Of a DNA stretch of 64,000 nt, positions 10,071 to 56,243 are shown piece after piece; the stretch's first letter is position 1, and every line of letters starts with the position of its first letter. The translations under genes and the position numbers were made by a program. The notes beneath the pieces were generated by a model that had not been told where the DNA came from, made no database searches, and was given only the letters and a program-made list of their open reading frames with translations. Where the stretch lies: positions 1,152,001 through 1,216,000 of the forward strand of contig CM000436.1 in the NCBI GenBank assembly GCA_000165345.1, read 5' to 3'.

Positions 10071-13000
10071 TTATTTGGTTTGACTTTGTATTAAAACAAG
10101 GATTTTTATTTCGTTGAGTAAAGCAAAAAATGTTGAAATACTCAAGTAATTATTGATTGTAGAGGTAAATTGTTCAAATAGAAGCGAGTATATCTTCCAT
10201 TTTGCATTACAATTTGTAAGCCACTCAGAATTATTATTACTCTCACCAAATATACTAATAATACATGGATTAAAGTAAAATTGAGTGGAATTAAAATTTG
10301 AATTGCTTGAAATAGTCTGTTTCTTACTAAAGAGATTATAAAAAAATAAGTTATTTGGATCATTAATTACATCAATTTTCTTCCATTTACTAATATAGAA
10401 TTGTTGCTTTTCATTAATAATTTCCAATATATTATTATCCTTTTTATTACTAAAATTCAAATCTCCCTTATTTAAACCATTAGGATTAACCAATTCAACT
10501 TCCTCAAGAATAACAGATTCCAAAATTTCTTTTGATATAATTTCTTTTGGTAAGAATGAACCTAAATCAAGAAAAGAGTTAGGATTTTCAGAATTTACTG
10601 GAAGCTCCAACCATGTAGAATTCATTTCTCTCAAAAATTCTTCCGAATTCTCCAAAAGATTAATATCTTGTTCTTTAATATTCTTTTCTATTGATAGTCT
10701 TGGATAAAACTGTGATTGCCAAACCATCCACCAAGGAGGACTAGTAATAATAGAATCATCCAAATTCAAAGAATTTTGGTAAATATAATTAATAAATGCA
10801 ATATTAAATCCAAAATTACTTAAGTTATTCTTGAAAACTAAGTCATTTTGATCAAAATCCATATTTCCTTTAATTTCTGAAAACTTTTTAATCAACTTTG
10901 GTGCTTCAATTGAATAATCATTATTAGTATCATTTTTAATTGATTTAAAATTCTTAAAATAGTTTTCATTTATACCAAAATCAAAATCCTCGTCTTCATT
11001 AATTATTTCTTCATCTTCTTGTTCTATTTCATATTTTATTGGAGTAAAATATTCTTTCAAATATTTCAAATCTAAGATATTGTTATCACTAATCTCAGGT
11101 TTTATATCAAAATACTTTATTAAAGGATTAATCCTGCTTTTGAAGATACTATTAATTCTTGCTTGATCATAATATGTAAGACTTGTATTTATAACAAAGA
11201 CTTGTATTTCAGATGAATAAACCATTTTTCCAAATTTATTTTTGTAGCTATCAGTCTCATATGATTTATAATGAGAAATCAATGAGTAAATATGAAAAAT
11301 ATTGAATCTATAGAATCTGTCTTTGCTGTAAAACTTTTGTCGATTAACAAGTTTAACTAAAGTAAGATACTCAGAAAGAAGAGAATTAATGAATTGATTT
11401 TGCTTAGTTAAACCATTCCTTGTAGATTTATCATACCATGGAAGAAAAATCCCATTCTTATTAACCTTTTCATATTTTAATACAAATAATATATTTTGTA
11501 TAAATATTAAAACTTGTTCAATATCTAATACAAGCTTTTGTTTAGTAATTGGTTTTATTACATTAATCAATGGATATTCTTCTTTAAATAATGTTTTGTG
11601 AGATGAACTTAGTACTGTAAAGCCTTTGCTTAAATGATTAATCTTGAGTTTATATTTTGTACTTCCAAGAATTTGCCTTAAGCTGATTAAATTCTGTGAG
11701 AATTTAGATATCTTTTCATATCTAATATTAAAGAATTCTCCACTCTTTTGATTTCTATTTCTAGAAATAATAAAACTATTAGATTCCAAAATCTCATCAA
11801 TTACAATGATTTTACCAATTTGTTTAGGTTTAAGTACTTTATCTACCACTAAATCTGTGAATATATTACTAAAATACTTTTCAATCTGACCATTTAACAT
11901 AGGATCCAAAATATTTTCAACAAAATGTACTTTTTCTCTCAATTTTTCATTCAATATACTAATTTCCATATATTCCAATTCAAATCCTATACAATTGTGG
12001 AATACTAATCTATCACACCAATTATAACTTTTTATTAAATTTATCTCAGTTTTATCTCCACTATCTTCATCTTCTTTCTCATTTCTATTAAGAAATTTCC
12101 CAATTTTCCTTGTCCATTGTACCCTGTTTTGTAAGTCCCTGATAATACATTTTAATTCGCAAACAGGATAACCCCTTGCTAGCAAATTTTTTGAAACCTT
12201 TACTTTCTGATACTCTTCCTTACTATTATAATCTTCTTCCAATATTTCATAATCCTCATCATATTCATAACTATCTTTAATTTCATGGTTAGTACTTGAT
12301 TTTCTATTAAATTTATTGGGAGAAATATTATTATCAAGCTTGAAATTAATCTTTTGATTATATAAAATCTTTAATTCATTCAATAAAATCAACTCTTCAA
12401 AGTCAATAATTTCCATTGGAGACTCAATTTTAATAGTATAATTGTAATTACTCAACTTATTTTCTTTCATTTTCTTCTTTTTAACCAAATAATACCCATC
12501 GGAATATTTCATAAAATCTTCTGAGATGTATTTGTTTATTTCTTTCTGATCCAATTCTCTTATTAGTTTATGTTCTTGATCAATAATTCTATCCACTTTG
12601 AATTTGAATTCATATTCCTTTAAACCTTTATTCATTTTATTTAAATACTTATTTTTGACTATTTCTGTGAAACTAATTTTTAATCTATTAGTTCCAAGGC
12701 TGTCAAAATGTTCAAATCCTCCTTCAATCTCACTTATATAATGATAATAGTTATTATCCAGATTTGAACTTAGTATCATCTTATCAAAATAATCCTTCAA
12801 TTCAATACCCTCGTCTATTAAATCCTCCTCTTCCTCTTGTTTATCATTCTCTAACAATTTCATTAAATCAATGAGTCTTTCTGATCCACCTAAGCTATTC
12901 AAAACTTGGTTTTTGTGGATTTTTAATAAATTATTTGCTATATTAGTTTCAATAGAAGTATTACTTTCTTTTGTAAGTGTAAAATCATCGTCAATATAAA

Positions 13001-13145
13001 CTAGATCACTTTCCAAATATATTTTATCCAAGTGTTCTTGAATATAATTATCAGCCAAATCATTTCTTAAAAATGCATTCACCTTCAAATTTACTATTAA
13101 GTAGTAGCTCAAAAAAATTACGAAATAAAATATTCTCAAAAACAT
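10071..13145 (-). CDS. large hypothetical secretory-pathway protein (N-terminal signal peptide or signal anchor, about 1024 aa, no recognised domain)
   Basis: The ORF track start at 13211 is GTG, and the first ATG is at 13145. It gives MFLRIFYFVIFLSYYLIVNLKVNAF (hydrophobic signal or anchor). The protein has many NxS/T sites and acidic patches. Confidence 0.6.
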   Translation of the reverse strand: MFLRIFYFVIFLSYYLIVNLKVNAFLRNDLADNYIQEHLDKIYLESDLVYIDDDFTLTKESNTSIETNIANNLLKIHKNQVLNSLGGSERLIDLMKLLENDKQEEEEDLIDEGIELKDYFDKMILSSNLDNNYYHYISEIEGGFEHFDSLGTNRLKISFTEIVKNKYLNKMNKGLKEYEFKFKVDRIIDQEHKLIRELDQKEINKYISEDFMKYSDGYYLVKKKKMKENKLSNYNYTIKIESPMEIIDFEELILLNELKILYNQKINFKLDNNISPNKFNRKSSTNHEIKDSYEYDEDYEILEEDYNSKEEYQKVKVSKNLLARGYPVCELKCIIRDLQNRVQWTRKIGKFLNRNEKEDEDSGDKTEINLIKSYNWCDRLVFHNCIGFELEYMEISILNEKLREKVHFVENILDPMLNGQIEKYFSNIFTDLVVDKVLKPKQIGKIIVIDEILESNSFIISRNRNQKSGEFFNIRYEKISKFSQNLISLRQILGSTKYKLKINHLSKGFTVLSSSHKTLFKEEYPLINVIKPITKQKLVLDIEQVLIFIQNILFVLKYEKVNKNGIFLPWYDKSTRNGLTKQNQFINSLLSEYLTLVKLVNRQKFYSKDRFYRFNIFHIYSLISHYKSYETDSYKNKFGKMVYSSEIQVFVINTSLTYYDQARINSIFKSRINPLIKYFDIKPEISDNNILDLKYLKEYFTPIKYEIEQEDEEIINEDEDFDFGINENYFKNFKSIKNDTNNDYSIEAPKLIKKFSEIKGNMDFDQNDLVFKNNLSNFGFNIAFINYIYQNSLNLDDSIITSPPWWMVWQSQFYPRLSIEKNIKEQDINLLENSEEFLREMNSTWLELPVNSENPNSFLDLGSFLPKEIISKEILESVILEEVELVNPNGLNKGDLNFSNKKDNNILEIINEKQQFYISKWKKIDVINDPNNLFFYNLFSKKQTISSNSNFNSTQFYFNPCIISIFGESNNNSEWLTNCNAKWKIYSLLFEQFTSTINNYLSISTFFALLNEIKILVLIQSQTK

Positions 13146-13883
13146 CTTCTTATCATTCCATTTCTTATAACTAATAGGCCAATATCCAATTATAGTATTT
13201 TCTAACTTCACCTCGTTAATTTTAACTTTGCGATTTAATCCTTAGTAGAAAAAAAAAGTAGGAAATAAAACAAAAATTCTCTTATCTTTAAATAGGTTAT
13301 TATTTTCTATATTATTGGCTTGACTTACTTCAAGTTTAGTTGTGATGTTCCATTTCAATCAAAATCTATTTCTTATAACTCTATATTCTTATTTTCTTTC
13401 TAAATTCGAAAGAATTTCTTTTTTTTTTTTTGTTTTATTTCCAATTGTCACACAGGTATTCCGTAAGTGTCTACTTTGACTATTGGGCAAAAAAAAAATA
13501 TGGAGGCTCCCCACACATGCAACGCCGGTATTAAAAGTTAAACAAAACTTAGTAATAACATGTGGATTAATAATTGGAAAAATGGTAATTTGAAAATTCT
13601 TAAAATTTTTAATAAAAATTATTTCAATTATAACAAAATATTCATTACTATAATTAAAAATGACTAATATTTTGACTAATTCTATTTTTATTATTTTTTT
13701 TCAATTATTTTTATCATTTTTTCGATTTTAATTGACTTATCGTACTTACGTGTATATAATTTAATAATTACATGCAATTCATGTAATTGCTATTAATTAA
13801 TACACGCAATACATTACGTAATTTGAAAAAAAATAATTAATAAAAAAATAATATATATATATAATATAAATGAGTTTTTGATA

Positions 13884-14829
13884 TTAATCTTTTTTTCTTC
13901 CCCTTGCTTGAACTGTAATAGAATTAAAATAATTGAAAAATTAAATTCAATTTAAATTGTTTTGGTTTCTCTTTCACTTACCTTGTTTATATTTGTTTAA
14001 AATAGATTTTCCATCTGGATGTACTTCACAATATGCTTTTAATATATTGTCCATCTTTTTGAACAAAAAATTAGGGGAAAATATATAAAGAGTAGGTTTC
14101 ATAATTAAACTTACAATTTTAATATTTGGATGTGTAACTTCTAGAGACCTTTCTAATACATATAAATCTACAGCTTTATCCTCAATAGTTAAAGAATCTG
14201 AATAACTTAGTCCAAAATCAATAAAGATTATCTGATTATCGTGAGAATCATCGTTAATAATAATGTTTGAAGTAGTTAAATCACCATGAATTATATGACT
14301 ATGAAGTTTTGAAATTGCATTTCCTATTGATATTGAAATATCTATTAATAATATAATATAATAAAAATATTTGAATAAAAGTCAATAATATTATACTGGA
14401 GATGATTAAATTATTTATTCACTTACCTAATAACTTTGAATCATAATTGCTAGAATTTGATATTATATTGTTCAAATAATCATTCAATATTGTACCTTGA
14501 ACATAGTCCATAATAATGATTCCATTTTCAACATCAACAAAATGAACATTTGGGCAATTTATTCCTTTTTGATTACATTTTACCAAATTTCTAGATTCTC
14601 TCAAAATTCGACTAGTTTTCAAACTTTTATCTAATTGAGGATGTCTATACTTTTTTTCAAATCTATGTTTAATTACCACTTTTTTATTTAATAATGTTGT
14701 TTCATATATTCTCTATTTTGTGGTTTATAAAATTATTAAATAAATTTAAAAATAATCAGTTTATTAACTTACAGCCTCTGCTCCTTGAAATAATAACTTT
14801 TCATAAGAATCTGGTGGAATTATATTCAT
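13884..14829 (-). CDS. BUD32: Bud32/TP53RK (PRPK) atypical protein kinase of the KEOPS/EKC complex; 5 exons: 14829..14773, 14712..14427, 14323..14115, 14054..13982, 13912..13884
   Basis: Reconstructed by hand. All four introns have GTAAGT donors and AG acceptors, with lengths 60, 103, 60 and 69 nt. The phases close to a 217-aa product: MNIIPPDSYEKLLFQGAEA|RIYETTLLNKKVVIKHRFEKKYRHPQLD...G|NAISKLHSHIIHGDLTTSNIII...IDFGLSYSDSLTIEDKAVDLYVLERSLEVTHPNIKI|MDNILKAYCEV...KYKQ|VQARGRKKD. This matches TP53RK blocks QGAEARV, AVIKHRFPKGYRHPALE, HGDLTTSNML, IDFGLS, EDKGVDLYVLEKA and VRLRGRKRSM. The ORF track shows only exon 2 (14419..14679). Confidence 0.75.
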
Positions 14830-15062
14830 TCTAAGCAAATAAAAAACCTTCCTTCTAGGCAAATCAGAGTTTTAGGAAAAATTTAGAATTCAAAGATTAT
14901 TTTAATATAGTTTAGCTATCTATCACTTAATTTCAAATTTACTAATACAACTTTTACGCGCCAACTAATAGTAATTGTTAGCATGTAATAAGTCTTTGAC
15001 AATACAAGAATATTTCTTTCAACATTCTAAGTTCCTCAAAAGGAATTTATTCCCAAAAGGAC

Positions 15063-16880
15063 TTATTTCTTTCTTCTACTTCTAGAAGCAGGTCTTCTCG
15101 ATTTTTTCCTTGATTTGCGAATATTCTTACTTCTAACAGAAGTTGATTTATCTTTAGATTCACTCAGATTTTTATTATGATAATAGTTATAGTAATCATA
15201 ATTATTATTATCATTATTATTGTCATCACAATCATTGTTTTCATTATAATTATGGTCATTACAATTACCCATTAATTTAAAAAGAGACTTGTTTTTGTAG
15301 TAGATTCTTGCTCTTTGAAACTTATGAAAAGGATTCACTCCATCTTCAGTTTGGGGATTCATATATTTTGTGTGAAACATTTCATTAGTTTGATCTTCAT
15401 CCAAATCGCTAGCACTACTTTCACAGATACTATTAGAACGTTCACTTAGGCTAAAGTCTCTTTCAATACTCTTCGAAGCATTGCTCATTCTTTCTTTTCT
15501 TTGTTTTCTTCTTTTCGTCTTTCTTGAATTTCTTGTAATAACTGTAGAATCACATGATCTGCTTGTTGCTTTTCTGAGACTACTTACGCTTGCACGCTCT
15601 ACTATATCATAATCATCATCATCACTTTCCATATACTCTTCGAGATAGTCACTCTCGCAGAAACTATCTTCCTTGTAATATTTCACACGTTTACCTTCTT
15701 TTTCGTGATCTCTCTCATCTTTGTAGTCCACACCTTCTACTTCTTCCTCATTATCTTCTTCTTCCTCATTATCTTCTTCTTCCTCATTGTCTTCTTCTTC
15801 CTCATTATCATTGGCCTCTTCATTGCTTTCATAATCTTCCTGATCATTTTCATCTAAATAAAAGTACTGACTATTTCCTAAATTATGATATCCTGAAAAA
15901 TTTTCATTAAGTCTAGAATTATTAAACCTATTACAAAGTTGATAATTGTGTCCAGGATTTCCACAAAGAGCACAATAGGCCTTTTTAATTGCATTTTTGA
16001 AAGGAATTTCATTATTACAAATGATATGACCAAATCCAGAACAGTTATAACACTCAATATCTAAATCTGTAATTTTTTCTGTAGAATCATGATCTCCAAT
16101 AGCAAGTATACTTTCTTCATATCCTTTCTTAATACAAGGATGAATAGATATATTTTTTGACATCTCTAAGTTCAAATCTTGATTATTTTTATCATTATGA
16201 TTACTACAAACTGGCCTTCTGTAAGTTGAAAAGTCCAAACGTGAATTCAAATAATAGTTGCCTCCACTACATGAATCACATAATCTAATAGGATGGTCAG
16301 GATCTGTTTTCCAGGGACAGTCTTGCGGGTGATGAAATCTACTAGAACAAATTTGACATCTAGCTTTTCTACAATGTTCTTTTGGATGTATTTTAAGGCA
16401 TCTAATGCATATACTATTTTTTCTGGAATCTAATAATCTTTTTTGCTGAACAATTATTTCTTCAGGTATTTCATGAGGATCAATATCTTCATTTTTTGCA
16501 TCATTTTGAAAATTAGAGAAAAAGCGTAAATTATCGTTGTTTGTAGTTTCATTTTGCTTGATAGAGTCCAATTTTACATCCTCATAAGTATCCCATAACA
16601 TGCTTTCATAGTGCTTCATCCACTCAAAAGTCGATCTTTCTTGAATACTTTGATTATTATATACTCTATTTCCGCTGTATTTGTGTAAACCTCTCCTTTT
16701 CCATGAATTATTCTGGTAATAAGTATTGTCGTACCTATTATAAGAGGAATGCTCAGGTCTAGATTCTGAATAGTCATTTTGGTTATATCTTCTGGTTTTT
16801 CTACCCGAGTAATGCCAATTATTATTATTTGGTCTAATTTGATATCTAAAATTGTTATTCTCAAGCCTGTCTGCGTCCAT
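15063..16880 (-). CDS. CCHC zinc-knuckle protein with an acidic NEEEED repeat region and a basic Arg/Lys/Ser C-terminal tail
   Basis: 605-aa ORF with an ATG at 16880. Several CxxC...H...C knuckles are present (CIRCLKIHPKEHC, CQICSSRFHHPQDC, CYNCSGFGHIIC, CALCGNPGHNYQLC). The tail is RSKNIRKSRKKSRRPASRSRRKK. Confidence 0.7.
   Translation of the reverse strand: MDADRLENNNFRYQIRPNNNNWHYSGRKTRRYNQNDYSESRPEHSSYNRYDNTYYQNNSWKRRGLHKYSGNRVYNNQSIQERSTFEWMKHYESMLWDTYEDVKLDSIKQNETTNNDNLRFFSNFQNDAKNEDIDPHEIPEEIIVQQKRLLDSRKNSICIRCLKIHPKEHCRKARCQICSSRFHHPQDCPWKTDPDHPIRLCDSCSGGNYYLNSRLDFSTYRRPVCSNHNDKNNQDLNLEMSKNISIHPCIKKGYEESILAIGDHDSTEKITDLDIECYNCSGFGHIICNNEIPFKNAIKKAYCALCGNPGHNYQLCNRFNNSRLNENFSGYHNLGNSQYFYLDENDQEDYESNEEANDNEEEEDNEEEEDNEEEEDNEEEVEGVDYKDERDHEKEGKRVKYYKEDSFCESDYLEEYMESDDDDYDIVERASVSSLRKATSRSCDSTVITRNSRKTKRRKQRKERMSNASKSIERDFSLSERSNSICESSASDLDEDQTNEMFHTKYMNPQTEDGVNPFHKFQRARIYYKNKSLFKLMGNCNDHNYNENNDCDDNNNDNNNYDYYNYYHNKNLSESKDKSTSVRSKNIRKSRKKSRRPASRSRRKK
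15741..15812. repeat. 4 x 18-bp in-frame tandem repeat (cttcttcctcattatctt) encoding (NEEEED)n inside the zinc-knuckle gene
   Basis: Seen directly. The ORF on the opposite strand, 15590..15910, is a mirror artefact of this repeat. Confidence 0.8.
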
Positions 16881-17032
16881 TTCAAAAAAAAAACGAACCT
16901 AGATGACTAAAGATATAAATAAAATGACGGTATTCATTAAATAATTCCTCTTAATATTGGAATTTGATCTTTTCAACTACTTTGTACAGTCTAATTTTTG
17001 TATGCAAATTTAATTATGAAAATCTATAAAGT

Positions 17033-17467
17033 TGGCTTTTGGCGCCTCATGTCGATACTTAATTTGCCAAAAAAAAAGTGTTGATGCATAAGATCCAAAA
17101 AAAAAAAAAAAAAAAAAAAATCAAATAATAAATTTTTATAATTAAATAAAATATATATCTGCATAAGGATCTAAACTACTTATACAAGGTTTTCTTTTTA
17201 TTATTTTTTCTAATTTCTTTGATTTCCAAATTTTTATTTTTAAATAAATTAGAATATTTGGCGTCATGGCAAATTGGCGCCAGATGAAGTGCATTTTTAT
17301 GTTTGGTTAAAATATTGAAAAAAATTTTTAAAAAACAAAACATTCACAATCAAAATTTCAACAATCATTTTTTTATACTCTAGCTGCTTTAAAAATCTGA
17401 AATTTTAAAATTTTAATTTTAATGGTTTGTTTCTAATATTAATAAAAAAAAAAAAAATGGCGCCCAT
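17033..17467. promoter_or_regulatory. divergent promoter between the zinc-knuckle gene and SerRS carrying at least 4 E2F-like GGCGCC sites (17041..17046, 17261..17266, 17278..17283, 17458..17463) and an A24 homopolymer (17097..17120)
   Basis: Seen directly: TTTTGGCGCCTCATG, TTTGGCGTCATGGCAAATTGGCGCCAGATG and AATGGCGCCCAT. Confidence 0.5.
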
Positions 17468-17693
17468 ATTCAAAATATTTGTATATTTAATTATGGCAAA
17501 TTGACTCACATAAATTTAATACATAATATAAGACAAAAAAAAATTATTGAGGGGATTTATATCAAAAATAAAAGGCAATAAAAATTACCTTATTAAATTG
17601 TAAGTAATAGCAAGTTATTCGAAATTATTTGAAAAAGAAAAGCTCAATATAAATAAGATTAGTTTTAAACATATTACAATATAAGTATTTATT

Positions 17694-19058
17694 ATGCCTA
17701 TAGATATTAATAGAATTAGAGTGGAGAAAGGTGGAGATTATCAAAAGATAGCCGAGTCAGAAATGGCAAGGTATAAAGGACTAGAAACTCTTGAGGAACT
17801 CGTTAAAGTAGATCAGAAATGGAGAGAGGATATGTTTAAATTAGAGCAAAGCAAAAAGGAGTTAAATTCAATTTCAAAAGAAATTGCTCAAATTAAAAAG
17901 AAAGATCCAAAGGCAGATTGCAAGGATTTACAAGACAAAAGCGTTCAATTAAAGAAGAATCTTCCAATTATCGAGAAACAAGCATTGGAAACTGAAGAAG
18001 TAAGAGATAAGTTATGGCATAAAATTGGTAATGTCTTACAACCTGATGTTCCTATTTCCAATACAGAGGATGACAACCTTGTATTGAGAACATGGGGAGA
18101 AATACCAGATATTAAGGTTGATGGAACACCAGGGAAATTGCATCACAATGAAATCATGTCCAGATTAGGATTCTATGATAGTGTGAAAGGTGCAGAATTA
18201 GCAGGCCATCGTGGTTACTTTTTAAAGGATTATGGTGTAATAATGAGTATGGCTCTCTCACATTATGCTATGGGATTCTTGTTAAAAAAAGGATATTTGG
18301 CAATTCAACCGCCATACTTTATGAAAAGAGATTTGATGGGTAAAGCAGCTGAATTGCAGGACTTTGAGGAGACACTTTATCACATTCCTTCTGATAACAG
18401 CAAAGGCGAGGTTGATTCAAATAGCTTATTTTTGATTGCAACATCTGAGCAACCAATAGCTGCAATGCATCATAATGTGACACTTGAAGATAAGGACTTA
18501 CCAATCAAATATGCTGGTATTTCAACATGCTTTAGAAAAGAGGCAGGCGCTCATGGTAAAGATACCTGGGGAATATTTAGAATTCATCAATTTGAAAAAG
18601 TTGAGCAATTCTGTGTTACTTTACCAGAAGACTCACAAAAGATTCATGAGGAAATGATTAGCATTTCCGAGGAATTTTATCAATCTTTGGAATTACCTTA
18701 TAGAGTAATTTCAATCGTATCAGGAGCGCTTAATGACGCTGCATCGAAAAAGTATGATTTAGAAGCTTGGTTCCCCGGATATAACTCATATAGGGAACTT
18801 GTTTCATGCTCAAACTGTACTGATTACCAATCTAGAGCGCTTGAATGTCGTCTGGGATTCAGAAAAGAAGGAGAGCGTGAAAAACATTACTGCCATTTCC
18901 TAAACGGTACTTTATGTGCAATCCAAAGAACAATGTGCTGTATTGTTGAAAACTATCAAACTCCAGATGGTCTTAGAATACCAAAAGTCTTACAGCCTTA
19001 TATGAATGGCGTCGAATTCATTCCATTCAAAAACGAAACCGCTACTTGTGCCAATTAG
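17694..19058 (+). CDS. SARS: seryl-tRNA synthetase, cytoplasmic (class II aaRS)
   Basis: 454-aa ORF with an ATG start. It has the N-terminal coiled-coil arm typical of SerRS and a class II catalytic core (FRKEAGAHGKDTWGIFRIHQFEKVEQF...; motif 3 region GTLCAIQRTMCCIVENYQ). Confidence 0.9.
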   Translation: MPIDINRIRVEKGGDYQKIAESEMARYKGLETLEELVKVDQKWREDMFKLEQSKKELNSISKEIAQIKKKDPKADCKDLQDKSVQLKKNLPIIEKQALETEEVRDKLWHKIGNVLQPDVPISNTEDDNLVLRTWGEIPDIKVDGTPGKLHHNEIMSRLGFYDSVKGAELAGHRGYFLKDYGVIMSMALSHYAMGFLLKKGYLAIQPPYFMKRDLMGKAAELQDFEETLYHIPSDNSKGEVDSNSLFLIATSEQPIAAMHHNVTLEDKDLPIKYAGISTCFRKEAGAHGKDTWGIFRIHQFEKVEQFCVTLPEDSQKIHEEMISISEEFYQSLELPYRVISIVSGALNDAASKKYDLEAWFPGYNSYRELVSCSNCTDYQSRALECRLGFRKEGEREKHYCHFLNGTLCAIQRTMCCIVENYQTPDGLRIPKVLQPYMNGVEFIPFKNETATCAN

Positions 19059-19076
19059 TCTTTTTTTAGCATACGT

Positions 19077-19117
19077 GGGAAGGCGGGCTTTTCCCAACAT
19101 AGAATTGCATGCAAACT
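19077..19117. promoter_or_regulatory. GGGAAGGCGGGCTTTTCCC (near-palindromic E2F-like element) plus ATTGCATGCAAAC in the 160-bp spacer between two convergent 3' ends (SerRS and DHHC)
   Basis: Seen directly. The position is unexpected for a promoter element. See findings. Confidence 0.35.
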
Positions 19118-19219
19118 TAAATATATATAGGAAATATTCACAAAATTATAAATATGAACAATTAAGTTTGTGAAATTTAGAAAATCTATATTTTAACACT
19201 AGAATTTAATAAGTTATTT

Positions 19220-20908
19220 CTAAATACGGCTTGGAGGCTTTCTTTCCCAAATTATTTCTCCCTCTTCTCCTATTATAAGATCGTCCACGTAATAGGGAAT
19301 ACAAAAGATTGCCATATTATATATATGCCCCTTAGAAAATGGAGAGTTTTGCGTATCTGGAAATGGTTTTAGATATGAAATCTTATTCCATGCAAGATTC
19401 TCCCAAGTAGTTAAGTTATTATAGGCAAGAAAAAGGTGATATATAACAAGCAATAGAGAGAGAAAAGCAATAAAGAGTGCATTCCCAGCAATGAAAATCA
19501 TTGAGCAAATATCAAAGATTGTTAGGCGGCTACCATTCAGATCTGCTTTGAATAGACAAATTGAGATACAATAAAGAATCCAAATACACTCGGGAAATTG
19601 AACAAGCGAAAGCCACCAAAATTTGCATCTATTATATTCACCAATGCATACACCAAGCCAAGGACAATGGTGATCATGGGTCCGAATACATCTTTCACAA
19701 GAAGTACAATGCTTTGTACGAAGAGGTTGATACATTCTGCAATAATCACAAAATCTTAACCTAACTCCATTCTGATACATTTTCCCCTCTTTAAAGACAA
19801 AGTAGCCATCATTACTTTGAAAACAGCTATTTTTGAGACTATTACCACTCATTTCTCTTCTTGGTAGGAGATCAATGCCGTCTGAAGAACATGGAGAAAG
19901 CGGAAATGATAAACTATTACTATTCAAATTTGATACTGGATGAGTTAGTTGTTCCAATTTTGGTGTTTTTTGATCCATATCATTAAAATTTAATTTAAAA
20001 GTTGATCCTTCTTCATTTAAGTTTCCCCTGTCAATAAAGCTACATTCAGGAGATTTATTATCACCATCTATAAGATCTATAGATAATTTGCAGCATTCCG
20101 AGCTATTATTACTTAACAAGTTATCCAAGATCCTATTATTATTCAAAGAAAACTGAGAAACTCCTATTGAATTTAGAAGTTGTCCAGGCGCACTTTCCAT
20201 TACTAAACTTAAACTAGCTGTGCTTTTATCAATTCTTATTGGAGATTTTATCAAATTACTTGTATTTAAAAGTGGGAAAGATGTGGTACCGCTTCCCAGT
20301 CTTAAAATACTGTTTGATAAATTTAAATCATTTGTATTTGAATCGCATCTAGAATCAGCCAATGATTTATCATCCAAAATCTCAAAACTAGAGTTATTGA
20401 TTGATTCATTTATAGTCTGTAAATTATTTATTGACCCAGCTTCAAGGTCAAATTCATCAAATTCTTCATCCCTTTCTTCATCTGAAGATCCAAATATATC
20501 ACTATTACTTATTTTTTTTTCATTAGTGCCTCTTTTCAAATTTCTTAATTCCAAATTAAATTTTAGTTTTAATGGATCCCTAATTTTGTCCACTGGTTTC
20601 AATTTTGTTGATGGACAACTTTTCAGGTATCCTGGATCTCCAAACGATATTAATATATATAAAGTATAATTTAACATACCAAATATTAAAGAGTAAACTA
20701 TTAAAAAAGGAGCATTATTTATATACCAATCATTACTTGTATTATTTAACAACAACCATACTGGATAATATGCATATAATCTAAGTATACATACAAATAT
20801 ACCTGTAATATTCCAATTATTCTTTGAATTCACAATAAAACGAGATGGTAACAATCCCAGAGGGTTATCTGTATATGATGATAAGTCATTCTCCTTGTAT
20901 CTTACCAT
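19220..20908 (-). CDS. DHHC-CRD protein S-acyl (palmitoyl) transferase with a long low-complexity insert
   Basis: 562-aa ORF with an ATG at 20908. The DHHC-CRD is CDYCRMYQPLRTKHCTSCERCIRTHDHHCPWLGVCIGEYNRCKFW. Two TM helices precede it and two follow it. Confidence 0.85.
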   Translation of the reverse strand: MVRYKENDLSSYTDNPLGLLPSRFIVNSKNNWNITGIFVCILRLYAYYPVWLLLNNTSNDWYINNAPFLIVYSLIFGMLNYTLYILISFGDPGYLKSCPSTKLKPVDKIRDPLKLKFNLELRNLKRGTNEKKISNSDIFGSSDEERDEEFDEFDLEAGSINNLQTINESINNSSFEILDDKSLADSRCDSNTNDLNLSNSILRLGSGTTSFPLLNTSNLIKSPIRIDKSTASLSLVMESAPGQLLNSIGVSQFSLNNNRILDNLLSNNSSECCKLSIDLIDGDNKSPECSFIDRGNLNEEGSTFKLNFNDMDQKTPKLEQLTHPVSNLNSNSLSFPLSPCSSDGIDLLPRREMSGNSLKNSCFQSNDGYFVFKEGKMYQNGVRLRFCDYCRMYQPLRTKHCTSCERCIRTHDHHCPWLGVCIGEYNRCKFWWLSLVQFPECIWILYCISICLFKADLNGSRLTIFDICSMIFIAGNALFIAFLSLLLVIYHLFLAYNNLTTWENLAWNKISYLKPFPDTQNSPFSKGHIYNMAIFCIPYYVDDLIIGEEGEIIWERKPPSRI

Positions 20909-50951: not shown

Positions 50952-51555
50952 ATGTCAGGAAATAGTAAGCAGTTATCCAAGTCAGAATTGGTTAAGATAT
51001 TGAAAAAGTCTACAAGCAGTACTAGGGAGAAGAATTTGGCAATAAAGCAATTAAAGAAGTTTCCACCAAATCAAAAAGATGAACTGGATAAGAATTTGGA
51101 AGGTTTAAAATTTAAAGTTAACAAGAATAAGTTATTTCATTTTTTGTAAGTTTTGAATGATGAGAATTTGGATTATGAAATTTTGTTGAATTATTTTAAA
51201 GAATTCAACAAAAATCATTCCAAAAAAAAATATTAAATATAAATTAATGTTAAAATTTAATATCTAAAAACAAAACAAAAAAAAAGATGTTTTAGATGCG
51301 ATAAGCCTAAACAGTCTAATATTCAAGTATTGTGTAAGCTTAAAGGTAAGTAATTTAATTTATTAAAAGAAAAAAATTAATTAAATTATTAAACATGAAA
51401 ATAATTAAAATTCAATGAATAACATTAATATTAATAATAATGATAAAATGATATTATACATTATAGATTCAGAATATACAATATGTCACTGTTGCTATCT
51501 TTCATTAGAAAGTAGTATTGAATTGAAAAGAATTAAAAGTTTGAATTTAAGATAA
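50952..51555 (+). CDS. speculative 3-exon small zinc-ribbon protein (about 113 aa); exons 50952..51145, 51287..51345, 51467..51555
   Basis: Exon 1 is the 65-aa track ORF. Its TAA is the TAA of a GTAAGT donor (TTTTT|GTAAGT). The AG acceptors at 51285..51286 and 51465..51466 keep the frame. The product MSGNSK...KLFHF-L-CFRCDKPKQSNIQVLCKLK-D-SEYTICHCCYLSLESSIELKRIKSLNLR has a CxxC...C...CxCC cluster. The model is unverified. Confidence 0.25.
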
Positions 51556-51556
51556 T

Positions 51557-52313
51557 TTAATTATTATTGCAATCAAGATCTTCATCATCATCATCATCGT
51601 CATCAATATCTTGGCCTAAATCTATATCACTATCTTGATTCATTTTTTCAGTTTCTGAATCATTCATTCTATTAACATTATTTATATCTTGACTCCAATT
51701 TGGAGTAATTGACATTTCATATTCTGTTGGTAACCAAATTTTTGAAACGCCTTTATTTGGAAACGTAGGTAAAGGTAAAGAGTTAATTTCACTAGATACC
51801 ATTTTATTTGCTATATTTGAATTTTGACTGGCTGTAATTGTTTCATAGTATTCTGAAATAGCAATTTTAGCATCACATTCTTGAATATTTGTTCTTGAAT
51901 CTATTCTTGCATATTCATTAGATTTAATGATCAAATCTTGGCTAAATGCTAATTTTTTTTTCAGATGAACATAATAATTATGTAAATTATGATATTTTAT
52001 AGTGATTGAAAAATAAAACTTACCGAATGCAGTATTTAATAATTGATCAATAATTCTTGGATCATAAGATTCTACTTTCATATCTTTTAGTAGTCTTCCA
52101 ATAGAAGCTACAGATTCTGGAATTACTTGAATATATTTTTTCTATTGTAATTATTGATTAATATTTAAAATAATAAATAGAAATAATTAAATATTTATTA
52201 CAAAACAAGAATATATTAAAACAATATATTAATAGATATAAAGAAGAAATAATTATATATTGATTCAAACTTTGCATATATTAATATGAAAATACTTAAC
52301 TTACTTCTTCCAT
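51557..52313 (-). CDS. TAF9: TFIID subunit TAF9 (histone-fold TAF); exons 52313..52305, 52141..52024, 51948..51557
   Basis: Reconstructed by hand. ATGGAAGAA|GTAAGT gives a 163-nt intron. Exon 2 ends TTCG|GTAAGT, followed by a 75-nt intron. The product is MEEKKYIQVIPESVASIGRLLKDMKVESYDPRIIDQLLNTAFAFSQDLIIKSNEYARIDSRTNIQECDAKIAIS...DDDDDDDEDLDCNNN. It matches TAF9 [64 protein letters not shown] and its poly-Asp tail. Confidence 0.65.
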
Positions 52314-52704
52314 ATATTTGAAAAAAAAATAATTGTTTTCTTTTTTTCCTTACTTTTCTTTTGTCAATTTGTGAAATTCTCGTGTTTTTTCATTTATTAT
52401 AATTAATAAAAAATAATATTTATTTTGGGTATATTACCGCCAAAACTTTTATATTCATAAAAATTTATTATTAATAACTAAATATATGATAATTTTTTTA
52501 AATTAGCAATAGAATATAATAAATGTGAAATATTTAAAAATAAAACATAAAATTTTTACTTATAATTATAACATAAAACTAATAATACTTTAAAAAAACA
52601 AATAAATAGATAAAATACATTCTCACATATATTGAATTGATTTTATTATCGTTATCAGTAAATAAATATTGATTTGGCAAAAAAATTTTCTATGTGGACA
52701 AATA

Positions 52705-55278: not shown

Positions 55279-56243
55279 TACAAAAATAAGAAAGAAAGGA
55301 AAAAAAAAAAGAAAAGGAAGAAATAGACTAAAGAATACTGAGAAAAGTTCTTTATTGATAAGGAATGGGAGGGAAAGAGAAAAAAAAAGTTAAGTTTTCC
55401 AATATGTTGAAATAATCTTTTTCTCTTATTAACTAAGTAATAAGATTTAAATAAAAAAAAATATATTATAATGAACTCGTATAATTGTTTAATCTAAATA
55501 AATTAATTAAATCTTTTATTGATATATCCCAACTTAAAAGAAATATATAAACTTTCTTAAATATACATCAAATAATATTTGGATATTAACAATAATTGAC
55601 TAGAAGAAAAGCAATTGGTGATTATTTTCTTTTTTCTTTTCCACATCTTTATTTATTATTTATCTTTAATATTAATGAGTATAATGGGGAAAAAAAAGAG
55701 AAATTTACACAAAATATTAAACAAATACAGGAATAGATAAGTTATGATTTCTTAATATTTGAATTATAAAATAAGAATAAATCAATTAATTAAAAACAAT
55801 AATATAACATTATTAACAAACGTTGTAANNNNTNTNTTAATGTTTTTCTATCATATTTATTTATTTTCCTTTTAGAAAATTTATTAATATAAAAAAATAA
55901 TAATAATAATAATAATAATATTAAAAGTTATTAGAAAATAAGTCAAATTTANTTTTGTAAATTTAATTGTATTATTTGTAATATAATTATAACAAAAAAG
56001 TGTTTTTTTTTTTAAATAAATATATTAATAGCATGTACTATTAATTATTACTAATTTATAAAGATTACAATGAGTAATTGTCAAAAATAAAGCATAAAAA
56101 TTAATAAAAATAATAAGCTTTTGTTTATATATATTATTTAAGTTAATTGATACTAAATGAAACTAAAATTTATTTAGAAAAAAAAAGAAGAAAATTCAAT
56201 TTATAAATTATATTCAAATAGTAGATAATAATTAATATTATAT

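Follow-up and report, generated by a model that had tools for sequence, protein, structure and literature searches.

A five-exon Bud32/TP53RK gene on chromosome 8 of Cryptosporidium parvum, with a corrected acceptor for its second intron

Bud32, the counterpart of human TP53RK/PRPK, is an ATPase rather than a conventional protein kinase. Within the KEOPS complex, substrate tRNA activates its ATP hydrolysis through an arginine of Kae1 (PMC11621456). Bud32 has been reported from every eukaryote and archaeon that was examined, and in Plasmodium falciparum Kae1 interacts with Bud32 and Cgi121 (PMC4615747). Association with Kae1 and Cgi121, and the requirement for the threonylcarbamoyl modification of tRNA adenosine 37 (t6A), have been demonstrated with KEOPS from archaea, yeast, human and plants (PMC11621456, PMC4615747). 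The mechanism of the ATPase and of the C-terminal tail was established on yeast and archaeal Bud32 proteins, in which an invariant arginine of the tail contacts tRNA, and truncation of the tail or mutation of this arginine abolishes t6A (PMC11621456). Here we describe the Bud32/TP53RK (PRPK) orthologue of Cryptosporidium parvum, encoded by a five-exon gene on the minus strand of chromosome 8. The gene lies in a 64,000-nt stretch of contig CM000436.1 (assembly GCA_000165345.1, positions 1,152,001 to 1,216,000; hereafter the window, to which all positions refer) and extends over 13884-14829, with the start ATG at 14829 and the end of the stop codon at 13884.

Among proteins of known structure, Arabidopsis thaliana Bud32 in KEOPS (PDB 8K20 chain B) gave the best sequence match to the C. 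parvum protein (E 1.3e-43), with 42% identity when structurally aligned. Human TP53RK/PRPK (PDB 6WQX, 7SZA-D, 9FL9) gave a full-length alignment over residues 11-222 of the C. parvum protein (E about 2e-43 to 4e-43) and gave Foldseek template modelling (TM) scores of 0.86-0.91, a root-mean-square deviation of 1.4-1.9 A and 37-38% identity. The two proteins have the motifs GAEA, VIKHRF, HGDLTTSN, IDFGLS, EDK.VDLYVLE and RGRK in common, whereas an N-terminal extension of about 35 residues and a longer tail (..RGRKRSMVG) are found in the human protein only, the C. parvum protein ending after RGRKKD. The human gene probably has far fewer introns. Yeast Bud32 (PDB 4WW5) and the archaeal Bud32 and Kae1-Bud32 fusion proteins (2VWB, 3EN9, 8UNK) belong to the same family and have the same fold (E 1e-22 to 8e-27, TM 0.73-0.79), but their identity is lower, at 28-36%, and the yeast protein carries insertions. 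While Bud32 is fused or adjacent to Kae1 in many archaea, in C. parvum it is a separate gene with unrelated flanking genes. The nearest other atypical kinase family is formed by the RIO kinases RIO1 and RIO2, whose match to the C. parvum protein was far weaker than that of Bud32 proteins (TM about 0.57-0.62); the C. parvum protein lacks the RIO-specific N-terminal helix/winged-helix domain and has the Bud32-specific C-terminal tail instead.

The exons and introns of the C. parvum gene are listed in Table 1, and the corrected spliced product is a protein of 223 aa. All four introns are AT-rich, have GT..AG ends and open with a GTAAGT donor, located on the minus strand at 14772, 14426, 14114 and 13981, one for each intron. 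As only 17 minus-strand GTAAGT sequences occur across the 64-kb window, a cluster of four within the 946-nt gene is improbable by chance (Poisson P about 1.4e-4). Without splicing, 13884-14829 contains stops throughout every reading frame. Exon 2 was the only part visible in the list of open reading frames (ORFs) at the default threshold, as an 86-aa ORF at 14419..14679, which agrees with an earlier note on this DNA; exon 3, which encodes the catalytic core, contains no ATG, GTG or TTG and was absent from the list. Downstream of its first 18 nt, exon 3 (14115..14323) encodes the catalytic loop HGDLTTSN with D135 and N140, the DFG motif with D156, and EDKAVDLYVLE, and the critical C-terminal tail is wholly encoded by the 29-nt final exon. 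All hallmarks named in that note, HGDLTTSN, IDFGLS, EDKAVDLYVLE and a C-terminal RGRKK (here RGRKKD), were found in the spliced product. The N-terminus encoded by exon 1 could be aligned to C. canis, C. felis and C. hominis. The gene structure, the family, the fold and the conservation of the catalytic and tail residues are demonstrated by the comparisons given below, and we regard it as close to certain that the locus is C. parvum Bud32/TP53RK (PRPK), a five-exon gene for a 223-aa atypical, RIO-like mini-kinase that by homology would be the ATPase subunit of KEOPS.

Table 1. Features of the C. parvum Bud32 gene and two named genes of its neighbourhood (window positions).
Feature	Length	Position	Strand	Remarks
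Exon 1	57 nt	14773..14829	-	First in-frame ATG; encodes MNIIPPDSYEKLLFQGAEA; GAEA is P-loop-like; phase 0 at the end
Intron 1	60 nt	14713..14772	-	GTAAGT..ATAG; phase 0; 13% GC; in-frame stops inside
Exon 2	286 nt	14427..14712	-	N-lobe; ATP-anchoring K34 (VVIKHRF) and alphaC E58; sole part visible as an ORF of at least 60 aa
Intron 2	85 nt	14342..14426	-	GTAAGT..TAATAG; phase 1; 14% GC; corrected boundary
Disputed 18 nt	18 nt	14324..14341	-	AT ATT TCA ATA TCA ATA G; coding, 5' start of exon 3; residues D115-I120
Exon 3, full	227 nt	14115..14341	-	Disputed 18 nt and remainder 14115..14323
Intron 3	60 nt	14055..14114	-	GTAAGT..AAAAG; phase 0; keeps the frame and has no stop in C. parvum, a coincidence
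Exon 4	73 nt	13982..14054	-	Encodes MDNILKAYCEVHPDGKSILNKYKQ
Intron 4	69 nt	13913..13981	-	GTAAGT..TTACAG; phase 1
Exon 5	29 nt	13884..13912	-	Includes the TAA stop; (V)QARGRKKD, conserved basic C-terminal Bud32 tail
Seryl-tRNA synthetase		17694-19055	+	
DHHC palmitoyltransferase		19223-20908	-	

Comparison of eight species (C. parvum, C. hominis, C. meleagridis, C. canis, C. ryanae, C. felis, C. bovis and C. serpentis) located the four introns at the same position and in the same phase in all of them. Introns were counted on reconstructed models in six of the species, where 24 of 24 had GT..AG ends, and C. hominis and C. meleagridis were compared by alignment with C. parvum, in which the splice-boundary sequences were conserved. 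The introns vary in length between 48 and 94 nt among the species. Intron 2 has a length of 82 nt in C. hominis and of 48 nt in C. meleagridis, with every indel upstream of the acceptor of the 85-nt intron, intron 3 is 65, 70 and 58 nt in C. canis, C. ryanae and C. bovis, respectively, and intron 4 shows indels of +3 and -1 among the relatives. Exon 2 is 286 nt in seven species and 277 nt in C. serpentis, exon 4 is 73 nt in all eight, and the 29 nt of exon 5 are conserved as well. Each of the four introns would, if kept, shift the frame or bring in a stop in several of the species. When C. parvum was aligned with C. hominis and C. meleagridis, 47 of the 279 intron columns contained an indel versus none of the 672 exon columns, the exon substitutions were distributed as 12/4/38 over codon positions 1/2/3, and exon 5 was 100% identical. 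The C-terminus V-x-x-RGRKK(D/V), directly followed by the stop, is kept in all species compared. The contrast was weak in the more distant species (exon identity about 60-78% versus about 45-62% for introns), because AT-rich sequence gives a high background identity, and the alignment of the close species was far more decisive. Judged from these alignments, the four gaps are spliceosomal introns by their ends, their conserved position and phase, their drift in length and the disruption of the frame that they would cause.

The second intron is where the structure had to be revised. Introns of 60, 103, 60 and 69 nt and a product of 217 aa had been proposed in the earlier note, and the open frame, the phases (0, 1, 0 and 1) and the GTAAGT donors were all reproduced. 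However, the acceptor in use is TAATAG followed by AT at 14342/14341, which lies 18 nt upstream of CAATAG followed by GA at 14324/14323, and therefore the intron is 85 nt, the residues DISISI are added and the protein has 223 instead of 217 aa. The upstream acceptor is orthologous in all eight species. The 18 nt between the two acceptors show no difference among C. parvum, C. hominis and C. meleagridis (100% identity), and the in-frame stretch over them, (D/E/K)-(I/V)-x-x-x-(I/V)-G, is conserved in all species compared. Alternative models were scored with a profile built from 100-odd homologues from which Cryptosporidium was excluded. The 223-aa model scored 267.3 bits, the 217-aa model 255.6, the model with intron 3 retained 251.6, that without the last exon 250.7, the 2004 GenBank model 216.4 and the bare ORF 91.2. 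On this independent Bud32 profile the disputed 18 nt were thus worth 11.7 bits, retention of intron 3 cost 15.7 bits and split the profile match, and leaving out the last exon cost 16.6 bits. The 223-aa protein also aligned with the solved A. thaliana Bud32 and human TP53RK without a gap through kllDISISIGnaisklH.

An exact-sequence look-up recovered the 223-aa protein as a deposited C. parvum sequence, QOY40235.1 (CPATCC_004340) / WRK34233.1. QOY40235.1 originates from the IOWA-ATCC long-read reannotation, whose authors state that the introns are 100% supported by RNA sequencing (RNA-seq) (PMC8744675). About 15 distinct Cryptosporidium proteins have been deposited at this locus, and the conserved five-exon structure is found only in QOY40235.1/WRK34233.1. 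The Iowa II partial model EAZ51486.1/XP_001388446.1 uses the 85-nt intron 2, but it is without exon 1, retains intron 3 and reads through donor 4. The 85-nt junction (DISISIG) is found in EAZ51486.1, QOY40235.1, WKS79733.1, KAL3126700.1, TRY49887.1, POM83399.1 and others. Errors in the deposited models include a missing exon 1, retention of intron 2, 3 or 4, a stop inside intron 3 and fusion to a neighbour, which is a 1024-aa gene. The most common error is loss of the 29-nt last exon, and the RGRKK tail is therefore absent from most deposited models. Bud32 models are wrong or incomplete in the C. canis, C. ryanae, C. felis, C. bovis, C. serpentis, C. hominis and C. meleagridis assemblies examined, and in C. 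hominis OLQ16367.1 (1193 aa) Bud32 is fused to the neighbouring gene. Corrected five-exon models, in which the most upstream in-frame ATG was taken as the start, encode proteins of 224 aa in C. canis, 249 in C. ryanae, 231 in C. felis, 243 in C. bovis and 220 in C. serpentis.

Other assemblies carry the locus tags CPHLJ_8g4700, CPCDC_8g4700 and CHM_8g4700, and the classical identifier is probably cgd8_4700. For cgd8_4700/CHUDEA8_4700 a supplementary table of Isaza et al. gives the values 0.957, 0.1043, 0.017 and 0.163, which we read as identity, synonymous divergence (dS), nonsynonymous divergence (dN) and dN/dS, and which would be consistent with purifying selection. The earlier note had called the gene hidden, which holds for naive ORF scanning, but GenBank has contained a partial model since Iowa II and the full model as QOY40235.1. 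Its further point, that intron-bearing genes are under-called by annotation based on ORFs, had already been made by the 2015 and 2022 reannotations, whose target was just this under-calling of spliced genes (PMC4637869, PMC8744675). The gene, its correct structure and the lesson for annotation were already known. The earlier observation was partly confirmed and its Bud32 interpretation supported, with one acceptor misplaced.

Both the downstream acceptor of intron 2 and the retention of intron 3 leave the frame open in C. parvum, and in-frame tandem acceptors are sometimes used stochastically. Minor isoforms might thus exist beside the 223-aa form if both acceptors were used or intron 3 were sometimes kept. 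We consider this unlikely, as neither alternative is conserved, the stop-free 60-nt intron 3 being a feature of the C. parvum/C. tyzzeri lineage, and there is no sign of regulation. That the use of the acceptors or of intron 3 is regulated, giving an isoform whose pre-catalytic helix is shorter or which carries an insert of 20 aa, or that the three ancestral introns have been kept because splicing is needed for expression, is highly improbable. If true, a regulated splicing isoform would tune KEOPS activity between life-cycle stages.

Membership of the 223-aa protein in the Bud32/TP53RK (PRPK) family is firm, which supports the identity proposed in the earlier note. The NCBIfam model TIGR03724 arch_bud32 (KEOPS complex kinase/ATPase Bud32) matched with 181.8 bits, above its cutoff of 125, over profile positions 1-191 of 193. 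The archaeal equivalog models NF0114xx scored under their own cutoffs, as expected in a eukaryote, and Pfam gave generic RIO1/Pkinase similarity only, with RIO1 as the best model (E 5e-11), which is usual for the Bud32 family. The best database matches were Cryptosporidium proteins, and homologues were named TP53RK or Bud32. A phmmer search of the PDB matched residues 10-223 to A. thaliana Bud32 and human TP53RK with E values of 1.3e-43 to 3.6e-43. Bud32/TP53RK accounted for each of the nine best distinct sequences (E 1e-43 to 1e-22), and the first other kinase followed at 7e-5. An AlphaFold2 model built with 40 homologues had a predicted local distance difference test score (pLDDT) of 94.1 and a predicted TM score (pTM) of 0.89, and the top 22 Foldseek matches of this model in the PDB were all PRPK/Bud32 (TM 0.74-0.91), with other kinases at 0.62 or below. 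In the alignment of 40 eukaryote sequences K34, E58, H133, D135, N140 and D156 are invariant columns, and R218, G219, R220 and K221 are near-invariant.

As the full set of kinase catalytic residues is retained and the Pfam Pkinase and RIO1 models match, the protein could be thought to work chiefly by phosphorylating protein substrates, apart from KEOPS and t6A, as was first proposed for human PRPK and p53. This is very unlikely. The AlphaFold2 model and the Foldseek matches reveal a minimal bilobal kinase fold of about 220 aa without an activation segment or substrate-binding subdomains, as in all Bud32 proteins, the C-terminal tail directed to Kae1 and tRNA is conserved, and the essential conserved role of the family is that of the KEOPS ATPase. 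To our knowledge, p53 is also absent from Cryptosporidium.

Inferred by homology, C. parvum Bud32 would be the ATPase subunit of KEOPS and bind Kae1. Substrate tRNA would switch on its ATP hydrolysis via Kae1, the basic C-terminal tail from the last micro-exon would reach the region of the tRNA and the Kae1 active site, and Kae1 would then transfer threonylcarbamoyl to A37 of ANN-decoding tRNAs. The tRNA- and Kae1-stimulated ATPase activity, the formation of the complex and the role in t6A are thus predicted for the C. parvum protein by analogy with the studied complexes. C. parvum, C. hominis and C. muris are each credited with one M22 (Kae1-family) homologue in a table based on MEROPS (PMC3770453). 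Our literature search found no dedicated study of Cryptosporidium KEOPS, Kae1, t6A or a Bud32 kinome entry, and apicomplexans were unmentioned in one review of t6A enzymes. Several points weigh against the identification of the locus as a correctly spliced KEOPS subunit. Kae1, Cgi121 and Pcc1, as well as Sua5/YrdC, were not among the 10 larger ORFs scanned in the window, the rest of the genome not having been searched. The equation with cgd8_4700 is derived solely from the numbering of the _8g4700 tags in other assemblies. The RNA-seq support for the junctions is second-hand, as it comes via the deposited model and the general statement of the IOWA-ATCC authors (PMC8744675).

Whether the 217-aa protein could nevertheless be the main product was evaluated against the same data. 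The 103-nt intron with its acceptor at 14324/14323 preserves the frame, its product is well over the family cutoffs (TIGR03724 181.1 bits; 255.6 bits on the profile), and the required AG occurs in C. parvum, C. felis, C. bovis and C. serpentis. This AG is however missing in C. canis, where it is replaced by GG, and in C. ryanae, where it is replaced by CG, while all eight species have the upstream AG. The 103-nt intron would remove 18 nt that are 100% conserved and encode a conserved peptide. In the AlphaFold2 model the six residues lie midway along helix 109-128, which runs up to the catalytic loop, and their deletion would force a gap against every solved Bud32. The junction was used in no deposited Cryptosporidium model, and the exact-sequence look-up did not find the 217-aa sequence in a collection of 15 billion proteins. 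The normal acceptor, moreover, is the first AG past the branch region. The 103-nt intron 2 was rejected on this comparative, profile, structural and database evidence, and the chance that it defines the main transcript is minimal.

Retention of intron 3 needed to be considered because in C. parvum, as also in C. tyzzeri, the intron has 60 nt, keeps the frame and contains no stop. Several GenBank entries model an insert-bearing kinase of this type or a tail-less one in which the last exon is unused, among them proteins of 236 and 216 aa ending in KQGK. Retention is impossible in C. hominis and C. meleagridis, since the intron is 58 nt in the former and 59 nt with a TAA stop in the latter, and in C. 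canis, C. ryanae, C. felis, C. bovis and C. serpentis the intron either breaks the frame or contains a stop. Retention was rejected because of this frameshift in C. hominis, C. meleagridis and most other species. With the loss of 15.7 bits and the split profile match, with introns in a plant orthologue at the sites of both intron 3 and intron 4, and with a 100% conserved last exon that encodes the near-invariant RGRKK tail needed for t6A activity in the studied systems, a kinase with the insert, without the tail or with both changes is hardly credible as the product of this gene.

The surroundings of the gene consist mostly of long uninterrupted ORFs, and the remark in the earlier note that four introns are unusual here was borne out. 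The RNA-seq-based reannotation of C. parvum Iowa reported introns in 10.8% of the genes, with 2-10 exons (mean 2.6), and an average intron of 99 nt and 22% GC (PMC4637869). With five exons in 0.95 kb, the gene belongs to the upper tail of this distribution, yet it stays within the known range. Based on a protein alignment, introns 1, 3 and 4 correspond in column and phase to introns 1, 4 and 5 of the gene from the plant Diospyros lotus. The shared sites are after GAEA in phase 0 for intron 1, before MDxIL in phase 0 for intron 3 and before V-x-x-RGRK in phase 1 for intron 4, and the penultimate exon is 73 nt in the Diospyros orthologue too. The plant gene differs by two extra introns and by the lack of the Cryptosporidium intron 2, for which no counterpart was found in the three outgroups examined. 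Intron 1 in addition has the position and phase of the sole Dictyostelium intron. Because of these matches with plant and Dictyostelium, the intron density is best explained by ancestral retention, with introns 1, 3 and 4 probably being retained ancestral introns and not lineage-specific gains. The introns shared with a plant and an amoebozoan would make this gene a small case of ancestral introns persisting where the genome has otherwise lost most of them.

Bud32 is a housekeeping gene expected in every eukaryote, and its detection here is therefore no discovery. The practical value is in the quality of the annotation, as the RGRKK tail is essential for t6A synthesis in the KEOPS complexes that have been studied. 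Defective proteome sequences would affect orthology assignments, kinome surveys and structure-guided inhibitor work on PRPK-like targets, and comparative splicing supplies the corrected C. canis, C. ryanae, C. felis, C. bovis and C. serpentis models.

Within 10071-20908, Bud32 and the genes on its two sides, for a 605-aa low-complexity/CCHC-like protein and a 1024-aa 'signal peptide-containing protein', are all on the minus strand; the named genes next to these three are included in Table 1. At every Cryptosporidium locus fetched, Bud32 had a same-strand gene on either side, the downstream one with a product of about 1000 aa; this includes the locus of the gastric species C. serpentis, where seryl-tRNA synthetase was found too. 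The spacer past the Bud32 stop (13212-13883) is about 670 nt, slightly above the mean of about 550-590 nt reported for intergenic regions, and very AT-rich, and it contains two minus-strand GTAAGT sequences (13328 and 13749). It may possibly hold an intron in the 5' untranslated region of the gene downstream of Bud32. Ten scattered N characters (46774; 55829-55836; 55952; 56438; 56812) are single ambiguous bases and one short cluster; they mark no scaffold gap and are far from the Bud32 locus.

Two further loci of the window may be spliced. The 174-aa ORF at 51560..52081 on the minus strand is TAF9-like, matching Pfam TFIID-31kDa from profile position 18 (E 8e-6; 26.4 bits, under the cutoff of 29). 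Minus-strand GTAAGT sequences at 52023 and 52304 (region 51560-52320) suggest upstream exons, in line with the spliced TAF9 gene of the earlier note. On the plus strand, in 50952-51560, the ATG at 50952 opens a short frame that runs to GTAAGT at 51146, and an exon-like stretch (..CDKPKQSNIQVLCKLK) is followed by GTAAGT at 51346, so that this locus, the 50952 gene of the earlier note, is a probable small multi-exon gene.

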